DNA of 64,000 nucleotides, taken from positions 34,702 to 98,701 of the IMG/VR virus record IMGVR_UViG_2706794555_000001. The stretch is one strand, 5' to 3'. Made by a program: the position numbers and the translations under genes. The stretch's first letter is position 1; the number at the start of each line of letters is the position of its first letter. The notes under the pieces are model-generated. The model was not told where the DNA came from. It made no database searches and saw nothing but the letters and a program-made list of their open reading frames with translations. Source of the stretch: a virus. Taxonomy: Duplodnaviria > Caudoviricetes. Below are positions 37,716 to 63,668 of this stretch, one piece after another.

Positions 37716-37891
37716 ATGAACAGCACGCTGGTGACGGTCGTGGGGCATGTGGCCTCGGATGTGCGGTACGCGACCACCGCGAACGGGGTGCCGGTGGCCA
37801 GCTTTCGGCTGGCGGCCACCGACCGGCGGTTCGACAAGCAGCGGGAGGTGTGGGTGGACGGGGACACCAGCTTCTACACCGTCTGGTCGTG
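37716..37891 (+). pseudogene. ssbB: Single-stranded DNA-binding protein (SsbB-type), 5' part, interrupted by the integrated element
   Basis: VTVVGHVASDV..T.NG.PVASFRLA.T.RRFD....WVDG.TSFYTVWS is the SSB OB-fold N-terminal half; a stop follows two codons past the junction. Confidence 0.9.
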
Positions 37892-37914
37892 CTCCTGAAC
37901 GCCTGACTATAGAA
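37867..37914 (+). other. Left attachment junction, crossover TG at 37890-37891
   Basis: ...GTCTGGTCG-TG-CTCCTGAACGCCTGACTATAGAA; CTGAACGC (37895-37902) is the inverse of GCGTTCAG (63633-63640). Confidence 0.85.
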
Positions 37915-37922
37915 TAGCCCGC

Positions 37923-39524
37923 ATGGCTCTCGGGAAACACCCCCTTCGCGTTGTCGGCGTACTTCGATTGAGTAACGAGACGGACGAGTCGACGTCCATC
38001 GAGCGACAGCGCGCCCTCGTCAAGAACTGGGCCCAGGCCACCGGGAACGTGATGGTCGGCTGGTCGGAGGACGTGGACGTGTCCGGCGGCATCCGACCAT
38101 TCGCCCGCCCCGAGCTCGGCCCGTGGCTGGCCACCCCGGAGCGGTTCGACGCCCTAGTCGTATGGAAGCTCGACCGCCTCACCCGACGCGCCGCCCACTT
38201 CGTCGAGCTGCGGGACTGGGCCGAAGAGCACGGCATCGCCATCGTCAGCGTGACCGAGGGCTTCGACCTCAGCACCGCCATGGGCAAGATGTTCGCCACG
38301 ATCATCGCCGCGTTCGCCGAGGGCGAGCTGGAGACCATCCGGGAGCGCACCCGCGGCTCCCATGCCAGGCTCCGTCAGATCGGCCGCTACGCGGGCGCTC
38401 CGTGGCCCATGGGCTACCGCGCAGTGGATCTGCCCACCGGGGGCAAGACGCTCGTCCCAGAGCCCGAATACGCCGAGATCCTGCGCGGCATCATCCGCGA
38501 CGTCACCGAGGGCGTCTCCACCGCCGAGATCGCCCGGCGCCTCAACGCCGCGGGAGTGCTCACCTGGGGCGACAAGCGCGCGGAGCTGCGTGGTGCGGAG
38601 CCTGCGGAGACGCGTCAGCGGTGGACTGCGGACGTCGTGCAGCAGATCGTGCGGAACCCGGTCTGCGCCGGCTACCGGACCGAGAAGACCAAGGCGGAGG
38701 ACGGCCGCTTCCTCCGGGCAGCGAAGATCGTCTATGACGAGGACGGCAACCCCGTGATGGCCACCACCACGCCGGTGGTGACGCCGTCGGAGTGGATGAA
38801 GGCCAGGACGGCGATGATGGCCCGCGGCACCACGGTGGAGCGTGCGGCCCGAGCTGAGTCGATGCTGCAGGGCGTCGCCAAGTGCGGCAGCTGCGGTACC
38901 AACTTGTACCAGCATCGGCAGACCAAGAAGCTCAAGAGCGGGACCCGCGAGTACTGCTACTACCGCTGCCAGGGCGAACGAAAGGGGCACGACTGCGCCA
39001 GCCCCGCCAACATCGACGTCGACTCGGCCGAGCGCGAGGTCGGCGCCGCCCTGCTGTTCATCCTCGGGCAGAGCGAGATCACCCGGCTCGACCATGATCC
39101 CGGCGAGGACTACAGCGCCGAGATCATGGAGGCGCGTCGGCGGCTCGACGAGTTGGAGGATGACTACCTGGTGGGCAAGTACGACTCCCCCGAGGGCAAG
39201 CGCCGGTACGAGCGGCTGCACGCCCGCGCCTGCGACCAGGTCGACCGGCTGCTCGCCCTGCCGGTACGCCGGGCTTCGACCCGGACCGTGGGCAGCGGGG
39301 AGACGTACGGGCAGCGCTGGGAGCGGTGCGACCGACTGGAGCGGCGCGCGTTCTTGCTGGAGCAGGAGTTCGCCGTCACGGTCCACGCTCCGGGCACGCT
39401 GGAGCATCCGGTGACCGGGGAACTCAACACGGCCCCCGCGGTCGTCCTGGAGGTCCCTGAGAGGCTTCGTGGGACCCCTGGGGCTCCCGTGTTCACCGTG
39501 CCGCCGGGCACTCGACTGGGATAG
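37923..39524 (+). CDS. int: Large serine recombinase (integrase)
   Basis: LRLS catalytic Ser, S.ERQ, DVSG, RPEL, VWKLDRL.R; recombinase domain; Zn ribbon CGSCG...YYRC; coiled coil. TAGAAT 7 nt before ATG suggests a leaderless mRNA. Confidence 0.95.
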   Translation: MALGKHPLRVVGVLRLSNETDESTSIERQRALVKNWAQATGNVMVGWSEDVDVSGGIRPFARPELGPWLATPERFDALVVWKLDRLTRRAAHFVELRDWAEEHGIAIVSVTEGFDLSTAMGKMFATIIAAFAEGELETIRERTRGSHARLRQIGRYAGAPWPMGYRAVDLPTGGKTLVPEPEYAEILRGIIRDVTEGVSTAEIARRLNAAGVLTWGDKRAELRGAEPAETRQRWTADVVQQIVRNPVCAGYRTEKTKAEDGRFLRAAKIVYDEDGNPVMATTTPVVTPSEWMKARTAMMARGTTVERAARAESMLQGVAKCGSCGTNLYQHRQTKKLKSGTREYCYYRCQGERKGHDCASPANIDVDSAEREVGAALLFILGQSEITRLDHDPGEDYSAEIMEARRRLDELEDDYLVGKYDSPEGKRRYERLHARACDQVDRLLALPVRRASTRTVGSGETYGQRWERCDRLERRAFLLEQEFAVTVHAPGTLEHPVTGELNTAPAVVLEVPERLRGTPGAPVFTVPPGTRLG

Positions 39525-39540
39525 ACACCGAGAACGCGCG

Positions 39541-62293: not shown

Positions 62294-63021
62294 CGGACAC
62301 CGGCCAGGGCGTCGAGCTCGGCCGGGCTCTGGGCAGGCTGGGCGTGGTGCTTGCCAGCGTGGCCAGCCTGCCGTGTGCAGCTCTTTCCGTCGGCGCTGAA
62401 GTGTCCGCACTGCGGTCCGGCGTGAAGTCGGGCTAGCCGCCGCCGTGCACGGTCACGCTCGCGTCGGCACTCGCGGCATCCACGCGCCCCTTCGGGACCG
62501 ACAACCGTGTTGGCCTCGTCGTAGGCGTGATCCTGCGGACACCGCGTCTTCCCGGCGTTGACCGCCGCGAGCGTGTGGCGCGACCGGAGGAGGTTCGTCC
62601 CGGGTGGCACGGCTTCCAGGTGGCCCACGTTGAGGCACCTCCGGTGCAGGCAGGTCGCACCGCCAGCGCAGGACGCGTCCCGGTTGTGGCAGGTGTGGTC
62701 GACGTGCAGGCCCTCCGGGACCGGGCCGATCAGCAACTCGTGAGCGGCACGGTGAACCAGGACGGGACCGCCGCCGAAGGACAGGACTCCGTAGCCGGTC
62801 CTCTTGGCCACGTGACCGGTCCAGATGTGGCAGCCGCCCCATCCGGCGGCGACCTTCTCCATGAGCCGGTCGATCAGCGGGCGGTCCGGCTGCAGGCTGG
62901 TGTAGTCGCCGGCCTGCTTGAGCGCCTTGAGGTGGCGCTGGTAGCAGGCGCCGCAGCGGCCCCGGCGGAGGCCGGTCTTATCGGGGTGTCCGCCGCAGTC
63001 GGCGCAGAGGTTGATGGTCAT
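62290..63021 (-). CDS. HNH endonuclease
   Basis: C.IWTG....GYG, HRAAHE, VDH.C...C.N..HLE.V...N and KT.CP..H motifs. Confidence 0.85.
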   Translation of the reverse strand: MTINLCADCGGHPDKTGLRRGRCGACYQRHLKALKQAGDYTSLQPDRPLIDRLMEKVAAGWGGCHIWTGHVAKRTGYGVLSFGGGPVLVHRAAHELLIGPVPEGLHVDHTCHNRDASCAGGATCLHRRCLNVGHLEAVPPGTNLLRSRHTLAAVNAGKTRCPQDHAYDEANTVVGPEGARGCRECRRERDRARRRLARLHAGPQCGHFSADGKSCTRQAGHAGKHHAQPAQSPAELDALAGVR

Positions 63022-63548
63022 CGCACACCCGCCAGGGCAACGAACTCCGCGTTGACGGCCTCGGACGGGGTGTCCAGCTGTACGCGCCGGACCTTGAGGC
63101 TGGGGGCCGAGGAGCGCATCGGCACGACCCCGAGTCCCAAGCGTTTATACGTGGCCCGGATTTCCTCCAGGTCGGCCACCATGCGGCCGGACGGCTCGCG
63201 GGTGACCTCCCAGTCGCCGTACCTGCCCGGCATCAAGCGGCTGAGGACCTTCTTGCTGGCCCGCTTCTGCCGGTCGGCGGTGCGGGCGGCGTCGGCGGCG
63301 CGGAAGTAGGAGGCGGCTGCGGTCTCGATGTCGGCGACCGGCGGCATGTCCGCGTCGGTGAACAGCTCGGCCGCCTCGACCTCGGCCAGCTCGGGCTGCG
63401 TGGCCGGCTGGACCACGGGGGTGCGGAACTCGGAGGTTGCCGCGGTGACGCGGGCAACGATTCGAGTGGTGAACTCGCGGACGGAGCGGAGGCTCGACAT
63501 GCGCGAGCGGGGTGCGAACGTGGTCTGAGGGGTGCGAAGATCCTGCAC
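63018..63548 (-). CDS. Hypothetical protein, first gene of the leftward transfer operon
   Basis: AAGGAG RBS before GTG; ATGA overlap with the HNH gene. Confidence 0.65.
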   Translation of the reverse strand: MQDLRTPQTTFAPRSRMSSLRSVREFTTRIVARVTAATSEFRTPVVQPATQPELAEVEAAELFTDADMPPVADIETAAASYFRAADAARTADRQKRASKKVLSRLMPGRYGDWEVTREPSGRMVADLEEIRATYKRLGLGVVPMRSSAPSLKVRRVQLDTPSEAVNAEFVALAGVR

Positions 63549-63620
63549 AGCCGTCTCCTTGTTTGCTCAAGGTGCTCGGTCAGGCCCTGCCCGGAGCTGG
63601 AATCTCCTGGTGGGGCCGCT

Positions 63621-63668
63621 TTCTCTGCTAGCGCGTTCAGTGGTGGAGGTGGTTGGCGGAGAACGTGC
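63621..63668 (+). other. Right attachment junction, crossover TG at 63644-63645
   Basis: TTCTCTGCTAGCGCGTTCAGTGG-TG-GAGGTGGTTGGCGGAGAAC; the SSB reading frame resumes here. Confidence 0.85.

Follow-up and report, generated by a model that had tools for sequence, protein, structure and literature searches.

A probable conjugative element of an actinomycete with terminase small-subunit and scaffold homologues, inserted beside a candidate helper prophage

The DNA analysed here is a stretch of 64,000 nucleotides (positions 34,702 to 98,701 of IMG/VR record IMGVR_UViG_2706794555_000001; hereafter the window) with a G+C content of 70%. It is actinomycete DNA, whose genes were called by third-position GC. 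The late half of a siphophage-type prophage fills the left 37 kb of the window (PHROGs, Pfam), and, after a gap of ~750 bp, the prophage is followed on the right by the element that is our subject, a single insertion of ~25.75 kb (37892-63645) for which a large serine integrase is responsible and which interrupts a paralogue of ssb, the gene for single-stranded DNA-binding protein (SSB). An earlier note, made from the letters of the window alone, had read this element as a phage satellite in which capsid-piracy genes and a TraB transfer module lie between one pair of attachment (att) sites, next to a plausible helper. In the features open to sequence testing, namely integrase and att sites, replication module, TraB and GntR regulator, its backbone fits an actinomycete integrative and conjugative element (AICE). 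Within this backbone, a cassette of ~4.6 kb (~45.3-49.9 kb of the window) holds two homologues of the small terminase subunit (TerS), each with a small partner gene, a gene termed g66 and a short homologue of a phage scaffold protein.

The boundaries of the element were confirmed by comparison with empty sites. Left and right flank adjoin each other directly in G006 and G013, two same-genus genomes whose ssb paralogue is uninterrupted. In the window the paralogue is reduced on the left to a fragment of 60 codons, right after which the serine integrase starts, and it continues in frame on the other side of the element at ~63647-64000, stopping at the last base of the window. Alignment of the empty site with attL and attR left an identical core of 3 bp, GTG. 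The 8 bp to the left of the crossover in attR, GCGTTCAG, are the exact reverse complement of the 8 bp to its right in attL, CTGAACGC, and in the excised circle these two arms would flank the core, giving a reconstructed attP with the dyad expected for a serine integrase. The element is thus bounded by one att pair, at essentially the coordinates claimed by the earlier note. Since the same genome has three intact SSB genes elsewhere, the disrupted paralogue is dispensable.

Most of the backbone parts named in the earlier note were confirmed by their families (Table 1). The integrase has Resolvase, Recombinase and Zn_ribbon_recom domains, and the putative replication initiator, a superfamily 3 (SF3) helicase with D5-family matches, is directly followed by 11 perfect GGACCGGGT iterons, a motif with no further perfect copy in the 64 kb. 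The Cre-like recombinase of the earlier note is a tyrosine recombinase beside a perfect 14-6-14 inverted repeat, which is present as a single copy in the window. Its relatives, 72-90% identical, occur in four other genomes of the host's family inside elements that have a terminal integrase of their own; the tyrosine recombinase is probably a multimer resolvase and not the integrase. The lox-like site recurs upstream of the recombinase at four loci (L039, L041, L042 and L045) with its arms kept and its spacer variable, and it could instead be an operator or a terminator. At three of these loci (L039, L041 and L045) a homologue of the XRE-type regulator, 64-70% identical, is also found upstream of the recombinase. 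In its layout, one site of two inverted arms around a 6-bp spacer beside the gene of a tyrosine recombinase, this part of the element is like Cre/loxP of P1 and Xer/dif-type multimer resolution; the likeness is one of arrangement, not of sequence comparison, and a common function would follow by analogy. DUF6907-like paralogues flank the central recombinase on both sides.

In the transfer module, the GntR/KorA-like gene and TraB were likewise confirmed. The KorA-like gene encodes both GntR and UTRA domains, and the TraB-type translocase, in which two membrane helices are predicted and both Walker motifs (A and B) occur, is 57% identical to its homologue in G401 (Streptantibioticus rubrisoli) and 61% to that in G403. 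Over 626 bases, traB has 77% nucleotide identity to the FtsK/SpoIIIE gene of a 13.5-kb AICE-type Streptomyces plasmid (H1). The Pfam FtsK match of TraB is weak (E 2e-3, 17.9 bits vs a cut-off of 24 bits), and no NCBIfam match and no PDB sequence match was obtained. The repeats beside traB form a putative cis-acting transfer locus (clt), with 6 of the 15 window copies of GGGAGGCG/CGCCTCCC falling within 163 bp. Not confirmed is the label Spd-like for the small membrane proteins of the traB operon, which draws on position and predicted membrane helices only: they matched no Pfam or NCBIfam family, and the corresponding position in G401 is held by a DUF2637 protein. A search of NCBIfam with 10 element proteins (nine from the transfer region and g60) returned 0 families, PADLOC found nothing in the element past helix-turn-helix (HTH) and homing-endonuclease noise, and megablast of the element gave no phage match and, among plasmids, the TraB segment only. 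The "divergent regulators" that the earlier note saw beside the integrase were not confirmed either, with 0 Pfam and 0 PHROG families for the genes at 39581-40576 and 41075-41479. No family in Pfam or PHROG marks the integrase-adjacent genes as a master repressor divergent from a replication and packaging operon, and the XRE and GntR regulators are located elsewhere.

Both TerS homologues of the element belong to phrog_5536, which is also the family of the prophage gene (g4) upstream of the large terminase subunit (TerL), and this bears out the resemblance noticed earlier. By BLASTP, TerS1 is 31% and TerS2 38% identical to g4, and the two are 72% identical to each other; the two element copies and the one in the neighbouring prophage are the only three members of the family in the genome. 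The TerS-like family was found in 51 of 401 genomes of the host's bacterial family. A near-full-length TerL, 43-56% identical to the prophage TerL, is directly adjacent in 27 of the 29 TerS loci examined outside the own genome; of the remaining two, one has a TerL fragment only and one (L006) is without TerL. The same synteny is seen in cultured Streptomyces phages such as Eastland, in which the TerS homologue is gene 1 and the terminase gene 2, and in a Streptomyces phage-plasmid, where it likewise lies next to the terminase.

The two TerS copies differ in their C-terminal tails. The tail of TerS1, of the VDxWL type, is shared with the prophage TerS and with the TerS of three other loci (L010, L020 and L022), and TerS2 has the majority tail, that of most phage TerS proteins in the family. 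In a quick tree, the TerLs of these three loci and the prophage TerL formed one clade, with a support of 99 in the SH-like approximate likelihood-ratio test (SH-aLRT). The association between tail and TerL clade is suggestive, not statistical, because the VDxWL tail has a single origin. As for selection, the ratio of nonsynonymous to synonymous substitution rates (dN/dS) between the TerS paralogues is 0.40 over 154 codons, and the third-position GC content (GC3) is at least 0.87 in all the genes. Besides the two copies in the window, TerS2 has 31 close relatives (59-74% identity), mostly from soil metagenomes, and small partner 1 has a weak relative (34% identity, E 2e-4) after the TerS pair of a metagenomic island, L105, described below. 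An AlphaFold2 model of TerS2 (mean predicted local distance difference test, pLDDT, 89) consists of an HTH domain, a long helical hairpin, a beta-hairpin and a C-terminal helix.

Members of the TerS family were also met in other settings. A homologue lies on four Streptomyces plasmids of 88-93 kb (NZ_CP109440.1, NZ_CP046906.1, NZ_CP107843.1 and NZ_CP107973.1); on the one inspected it stands beside a PBSX-type TerL, a P22-type coat protein and tail genes, and these replicons are phage-plasmids of the size of pZL12. In a genome of the same genus, a 437-aa frame (L036, G021:C57, 304-1617) fuses a TerS-like N-terminal HTH to a tyrosine recombinase from residue ~41. The HTH is 62-65% identical to the element TerS and the recombinase part 87%; nothing else of the element is nearby, and the fusion has the look of what a deletion left behind of some related element.

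The scaffold homologue was recognised by its match to phrog_8952 and by 42% identity over 55 aa to the prophage protein in scaffold position (g9), to which its C-terminal tail is also similar, in agreement with the earlier description of a shortened scaffold. It has the mid domain and C-terminal tail of the family and is without the N-terminal ~155 residues. Three other short forms were found among 5.8 billion clustered proteins; they are 133-154 aa long and 56-60% identical, begin at the same residue without the N-terminal ~155-200 residues, and keep the tail. The scaffold-position family is present in 10 of 20 extended prophage loci, directly upstream of the capsid gene where that is recognisable. 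Its tail goes with the type of capsid: the short scaffold has the tail class of g9, L083 and L090, from phages with a capsid protein of the neighbour's type (44-45% identity), and phages with other capsid types have other scaffold tails. A tblastn search of phages and plasmids with the short scaffold gave no match, and IMG/VR scans with the element helicase and with P0004 found nothing.

Twelve homologues, 49-78% identical, were found for g66, a conserved gene that runs at its end into the beginning of the short scaffold gene. In Kitasatospora sp. GP30 the g66 and short scaffold homologues carry the adjacent locus tags P3T35_003038 and P3T35_003039. In two pairs of TerS and g66 relatives the longest contigs are equal in length, at 3263 bp (P0006 and P0039) and at 11865 bp (P0009 and P0048); these equal lengths are hints, not proof, that the relatives of the two genes share contigs. 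A model of g66 (pLDDT 86) gave no informative match in Foldseek against PDB or in VIA-align wide. Psu, the nearest named protein-atlas cluster at 0.78, was dropped as below the counting level; the other clusters were unnamed.

Elements related in their backbone show how the cassette is placed. In G401 the recombinase lies inside an element of ~30 kb. On the left this has a terminal tyrosine integrase, g56- and g57-like genes, a Prim-Pol replication protein and six unrelated cargo genes, followed on the right by the XRE regulator (66%) and recombinase (89%), more cargo, TraB, the DUF2637 protein and g85- and g89-like genes. Here g56 is 51% identical to r11, and g85 and g89 are 47% identical to r38 and r40; g57 is 37-42% identical to r13 and to its counterpart in L041. 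The latter, in Kitasatospora sp. GAS204B, has the g57-like gene, a distant SF3 helicase (22% identity) in the same position as that of the element, two small genes, the XRE regulator with the recombinase (73%), and a TraB-like gene. The H1 plasmid carries the classical set of integrase, Prim-Pol, FtsK/SpoIIIE, spdB and GntR genes. In the relatives the cargo slot is occupied by accessory genes, e.g., for DUF4326, methyltransferase or DUF6011 proteins. Because relatives are without them, the phage-related genes are best described as a cassette in a variable slot between the replication protein and the XRE regulator, and, because genes of both halves recur in these relatives, the remainder is one conjugative backbone with exchangeable integrase and replication modules.

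This modular history divides the earlier interpretation. The joining of TerS and scaffold homologues with a TraB/clt module in a single element stands, as does the statement that the element has no capsid, portal, TerL or tail gene: none of these families was found by Pfam among its 39 open reading frames, of which 14 were also searched against PHROGs, with BLASTP against all prophage proteins. A satellite half as a unit, of the kind found in Staphylococcus aureus pathogenicity islands (SaPIs), does not stand, since g56, g57, a replication protein in the same position, XRE/recombinase, TraB and the end genes recur without TerS and scaffold in G401 and L041. In support of a single element, relatives do not show the two halves as always separate, which the earlier note had named as the mark of a chance co-integrate.

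Relatives of the cassette itself were found on a different backbone. L105, an unrelated metagenomic island next to glnA, has a tyrosine integrase, a Bro-N/ANT antirepressor, two TerS genes, one of each tail type, a weak g63-like partner and no TerL. Two further loci (L103 and L104) contain truncated TerS remnants among chromosomal genes, without TerL, and a distant TerS relative (34% identity, L107) belongs to an ordinary phage head module. At the readable loci (L103, L104 and L105) the close TerS clade thus appears to reside outside phage morphogenesis modules. Low-depth contigs of 150-380 bp in soil metagenomes (runs X1, X2, X3 and X5, from three studies) are identical to scattered places at 43700-63650, the TerS and TraB regions included; they may simply mark the presence of the strain. 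No RNA run was among the sequencing runs listed for the element.

The candidate helper is the neighbouring prophage, whose head and packaging module encodes TerL, an SPP1-type portal, a minor head protein and a major capsid protein, with further genes for a tape measure protein, a Dit protein and a glycoside hydrolase (PHROGs, Pfam). We take its TerL and portal types to be those of headful packagers, in which TerS chooses the DNA. A GIY-YIG and HTH protein that resembles homing endonucleases is encoded at 9138-10151, where it separates the major capsid gene from the head-tail genes, and a second GIY-YIG gene lies in the upstream region of the prophage (L038:4332-4838). Also upstream of the prophage TerS, ~6.4 kb left of the window start, is a gene for a 558-aa protein of the FtsK/SpoIIIE family (Pfam E 1.8e-13; G000 contig C124:28028-29704, L038:8029-9705). 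The candidate helper itself may carry a DNA-translocase or TraB-like gene, as some Streptomyces phages reportedly do. A small Cys-containing protein of the element (54538-54759) is 51% identical to a protein of the prophage early region (33934-34176), making this the third gene common to the two. The 46-bp 3' segment of the tRNA-Arg gene (37196-37241), presumably the att core of the prophage, has its sole other exact copy at G000 contig C82:29121-29166. Because that copy sits on a different contig, the DNA integrated at the tRNA-Arg gene may exceed 90 kb or form a tandem array.

Table 1. Features of the neighbouring prophage and of the element, in window coordinates
Feature	Position	Strand	Evidence or remark
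Prophage head and packaging module (candidate helper)	1413-9018	+	PHROGs, Pfam
Prophage TerS-position gene (g4)	1413-1886	+	phrog_5536; directly upstream of TerL
Prophage TerL, Terminase_6/Terminase_3-type	1890-3200	+	PHROGs, Pfam
Prophage portal, SPP1-type	3211-4998	+	PHROGs, Pfam
Prophage minor head protein	5812-6738	+	PHROGs, Pfam
Prophage scaffold-position gene (g9)	7152-8015	+	phrog_15186/8952; directly upstream of major capsid gene
Prophage major capsid protein	8104-9018	+	PHROGs, Pfam
Prophage tyrosine integrase, right end of prophage	36111-37145		Adjoins tRNA-Arg
tRNA-Arg	37196-37269		Beside prophage integrase; SSB fragment starts ~450 bp rightward
N-terminal fragment of disrupted ssb paralogue, left chromosomal flank with attL	37716-37898	+	Pfam SSB 4-53 of 104, E 5e-7
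attL	37889-37902		Core GTG 37889-37891 and attP-derived arm CTGAACGC 37895-37902; alignment with attR and G006 empty site
Large serine integrase	37923-39524	+	Resolvase E 6.5e-30, Recombinase E 1e-11, Zn_ribbon_recom E 4e-9
Gene next to integrase	39581-40576	-	0 Pfam, 0 PHROG, 0 PADLOC families
Two weak DUF6907-like paralogues	41476-42125	+	E 3e-5 and 8e-5, both just under Pfam cut-off
Backbone genes g56, g57	42122-42931	+	Shared with related conjugative elements
SF3 (D5-like) helicase, putative replication initiator	43182-44774	+	DUF5906 E 1e-13, D5_N, Pox_D5
Iteron array, putative origin	44783-45046		11 perfect GGACCGGGT 9-mers in direct and inverted clusters
Cargo gene g60	45304-46026	+	HPD J-domain-like motif at C-terminus; no match in Pfam, PHROG, NCBIfam, PADLOC
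TerS homologue 1	46829-47362	+	phrog_5536 E 1e-28; VDxWL-type C-terminal tail
Small partner gene 1 (g63)	47359-47613	+	Paralogue of 48139-48342
TerS homologue 2	47607-48113	+	phrog_5536 E 4e-34; majority SxLGxL-type tail
Small partner gene 2	48139-48342	+	42% identical to partner 1
g66	48728-49441	+	Coiled-coil hairpin and alpha/beta domain; end overlaps short scaffold start
Short scaffold homologue, 148 aa	49425-49871	+	phrog_8952 E 2e-9, profile positions 160-243 of 261
XRE-type HTH regulator	49994-50326	+	HTH_31 E 2e-15; paired with tyrosine recombinase in relatives
lox-like site	50835-50868		Perfect 14-bp inverted arms, 6-bp spacer
Tyrosine recombinase	50886-51884	+	Phage_integrase E 2e-10
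DUF4236 and SHOCT protein	51910-52689	-	Pfam; 65% identical homologue adjoins recombinase in L045
GntR/UTRA regulator, KorA/KorSA-like by family	53265-54035	-	UTRA E 2.5e-18, GntR E 3e-15
Third, clear DUF6907 copy	54954-55373		Pfam E 4.5e-19
clt-like cluster (putative)	56508-56670		Six 8-mers, GGGAGGCG or complement CGCCTCCC, just 3' of traB
TraB-type FtsK-like DNA translocase	56675-58831	-	Homology, two membrane helices, Walker A and B
Operon upstream of traB	58831-63548	-	Small membrane proteins, T5orf172/MUG113 protein, HNH_3 protein, end genes g85 and g89
T5orf172/MUG113-domain protein	59320-60711	-	Pfam
HNH_3 protein	62290-63021	-	Pfam
attR	63633-63645		Arm GCGTTCAG 63633-63640 and core GTG 63643-63645; same alignment as attL

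With AICEs such as pSAM2, SLP1 and pMEA300, for which we drew on parts of three reviews (PMC2440964, PMC3218068, PMC3429521), the element shares an integrase with att sites, a replication module of its own, a GntR-family regulator, a single FtsK-like TraB with an adjacent repeat cluster, and small membrane proteins in the operon, and its gene order matches that of two related elements and of the 13.5-kb plasmid. It differs from them in having a serine rather than a tyrosine integrase, a protein gene (the ssb paralogue) rather than a tRNA gene as target, an SF3 helicase with iterons, the central tyrosine recombinase with its lox-like site and, most notably, a pair of TerS genes together with a truncated scaffold.

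A second likeness, known from the genes alone, is to satellites of the SaPI type and other phage-inducible chromosomal islands (PICIs). These satellites have a TerS of their own and a scaffold-like protein, CpmB. The element resembles them in its integrase, in a helicase beside an iteron origin, in having a TerS of its own that belongs to the family of the helper TerS, in a small protein like the C-terminus of the helper scaffold (cf. CpmB) and in the want of TerL, portal, capsid and tail genes, and it lies beside a prophage of matching family; satellites are surveyed in a 2023 paper in NAR (PMC10085698). Unlike these satellites, it has a complete conjugation module, two TerS genes with different tails, and no master repressor that we could identify.

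Spread by both conjugation and virions has a precedent in the Streptomyces plasmid-phage pZL12/phiZL12, whose original study is reportedly that of Zhong et al. (2010, J Bacteriol 192:3747). Like the element as we read it, this single actinomycete replicon combines a route by tra genes with one by phage particles, according to passages that cite the study in PMC3583192 and PMC4487206. It differs in being a complete phage of ~90 kb with its own virion genes; the element has none and would need a helper. The actinobacterial satellites MiniFlayer/Mulch (PMC10690885), Ando (PMC13587820) and EPIPs (PMC12822802) are helper-dependent elements of actinomycete phages, as we propose for this element, and differ from it in encoding capsid or other virion proteins; EPIPs, like the element, have genes for TerS, a scaffold and a serine integrase. 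A word search of the papers on Ando and the EPIPs found "conjug" 0 times and FtsK only for helper-type phages, not the satellite, and these two papers report no transfer gene on the satellite. In keeping with the earlier note, which knew of no such element, our literature search found no described element that joins satellite genes with a conjugation module and no paper that treats an AICE together with terminase, capsid and FtsK; supplementary lists of predicted satellites and AICEs might hold cases.

On balance we lean towards reading the element as an AICE that carries a cassette from headful-packaging siphophages, most likely for helper piracy. From the boundaries, gene content, homologies, synteny and modular history, which are established, we infer how it would excise, replicate and transfer and, above all, how packaging and capsid interference might come about. 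The serine integrase would insert the element into the ssb paralogue, the SF3 helicase would drive replication from the iteron origin, and the tyrosine recombinase would resolve multimers at the lox-like site. Under control of the GntR regulator, TraB would act on the clt-like cluster to move double-stranded DNA between hyphae. During growth of a phage of the family, for example the neighbouring prophage, the element TerS would recruit the phage TerL to element DNA, with the two TerS tails suited to two TerL clades. The short scaffold, perhaps aided by g66, would attach to the major capsid protein of the helper, so upsetting capsid assembly or changing the size of the capsid, and the element could then also leave in phage particles. 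Whether a self-transmissible conjugative element is in this way a phage satellite too, with a portable "piracy module" that jumps between AICE backbones and backbones of the L105 type, is a wider proposition that we hold plausible and put forward tentatively.

The same cassette might serve as anti-phage cargo, its TerS proteins acting as decoys that misdirect or titrate the terminase and its truncated scaffold as a dominant-negative protein that poisons capsid assembly; host and element would gain protection, with the element itself unpackaged. A competitive inhibitor would indeed look like a C-terminal-only scaffold with a matching coat-binding tail, the cassette occupies the slot in which relatives hold unrelated accessory genes, and the element already has a transfer route in TraB. 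However, both TerS proteins are full length, with HTH, oligomerisation helices and TerL-type tails, which is more than a decoy needs, and PADLOC gave no defence family beyond HTH noise. The explanation also overlaps with piracy, since interference and piracy are combined in satellites such as SaPIs and P4, and taken as a whole we consider it unlikely. Rather less credible to us is a cassette devoid of phage function, in which the TerS-like proteins serve the element as HTH regulators of an ordinary kind or as DNA-binding proteins of partition type, and the scaffold-like gene is a decaying fragment that recombination with a phage left behind. In its favour, sources label the TerS relatives "HTH", "transposase-like" or "AcrR family", solved structures match by sequence the HTH part only, and what remains at L103 and L104 is truncated and surrounded by chromosomal genes. 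Ordinary regulators would, however, not be expected beside TerL in nearly all loci, with tails that co-vary with the TerL clade and a dN/dS of 0.40, nor would a decaying fragment be kept as a pair with g66 at 49-78% identity in several sources; the two-tail TerS pair, moreover, occurs again in L105. A recent chance co-integrate of a small satellite and an AICE, with the recombinase at the seam, would explain why the recombinase and its site stand between the cassette and the TraB region and why cassette relatives sit on a different backbone in L105. In G401, however, g56 and g57 on the left and TraB, g85 and g89 on the right recur around the same XRE/recombinase pair, and a terminal integrase is present besides the central recombinase; the window, moreover, has a single lox-like site and a single att pair. 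We rejected this reading, the least probable of those weighed, on the gene content of the relatives.

Several observations weigh against an AICE with a piracy cassette and keep our preference for it modest. The full combination was seen in this one genome only and is rare: local TerS and scaffold profiles found no such genes in the backbone relatives G401 and L041, and neither the 400 other family genomes nor 167 genomes from the genus to which G402 belongs yielded a close short scaffold, so that the co-occurrence of TerS, mini-scaffold and TraB, proposed earlier as a check, was not seen in these genomes. At 25.7 kb, the element is larger than the roughly 10-15 kb of SaPI and PICI satellites. 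PHROGs gives the label "unknown function" to phrog_5536 and to the scaffold families alike, and the function of TerS was therefore judged by synteny. Profile and structure searches, on which the earlier note had let the TerS and scaffold homologies depend, are divided. The PHROG profiles match, and the fold searches gave no convincing link to solved small terminases: with the TerS2 model, Foldseek against PDB returned nothing at E <= 1e-3 (G20c TerS at E 0.31), the best matches in BFVD were mostly unnamed actinophage proteins or "HTH DNA-binding", with annotated TerS only at E 0.004-0.02, and VIA-align wide gave generic helical hairpins and HTH domains only (Z <= 8.6). The proposed identity of TerS thus stands on family and synteny, not on structure. 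Some phage genes in scaffold position are short as called (113-177 aa), which makes shortness alone weak evidence. The left end of the prophage was not located, a search of the G006 left flank having given no match to contig C124, so its role as helper is that of a candidate only. As regards particles, excision and transfer, the element is known here from its genes.

The usual classification of mobile elements sets autonomous ones (e.g., conjugative elements and phages) apart from hitchers (e.g., satellites and mobilizable elements). A review (PMC11389934) puts forward the idea that an autonomous element may become mobilisable by helpers unrelated to it. The AICE backbone described here is of a known kind; new is an AICE with a portable cassette of TerS and scaffold, which would make the element a concrete case, testable at the bench, of a conjugative element with a small exchangeable module for packaging and capsids. 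Were the cassette to be defence cargo, it would represent a new, decoy-type anti-phage mechanism. If it works in piracy, the class of an element would cease to dictate its transfer route and host range, the two TerS tails would offer a simple model of how a hitcher widens its range of helpers, and actinomycetes would have a PICI-like satellite system. It would also give a cell-free route to AICEs, which are important in gene flow among antibiotic producers.

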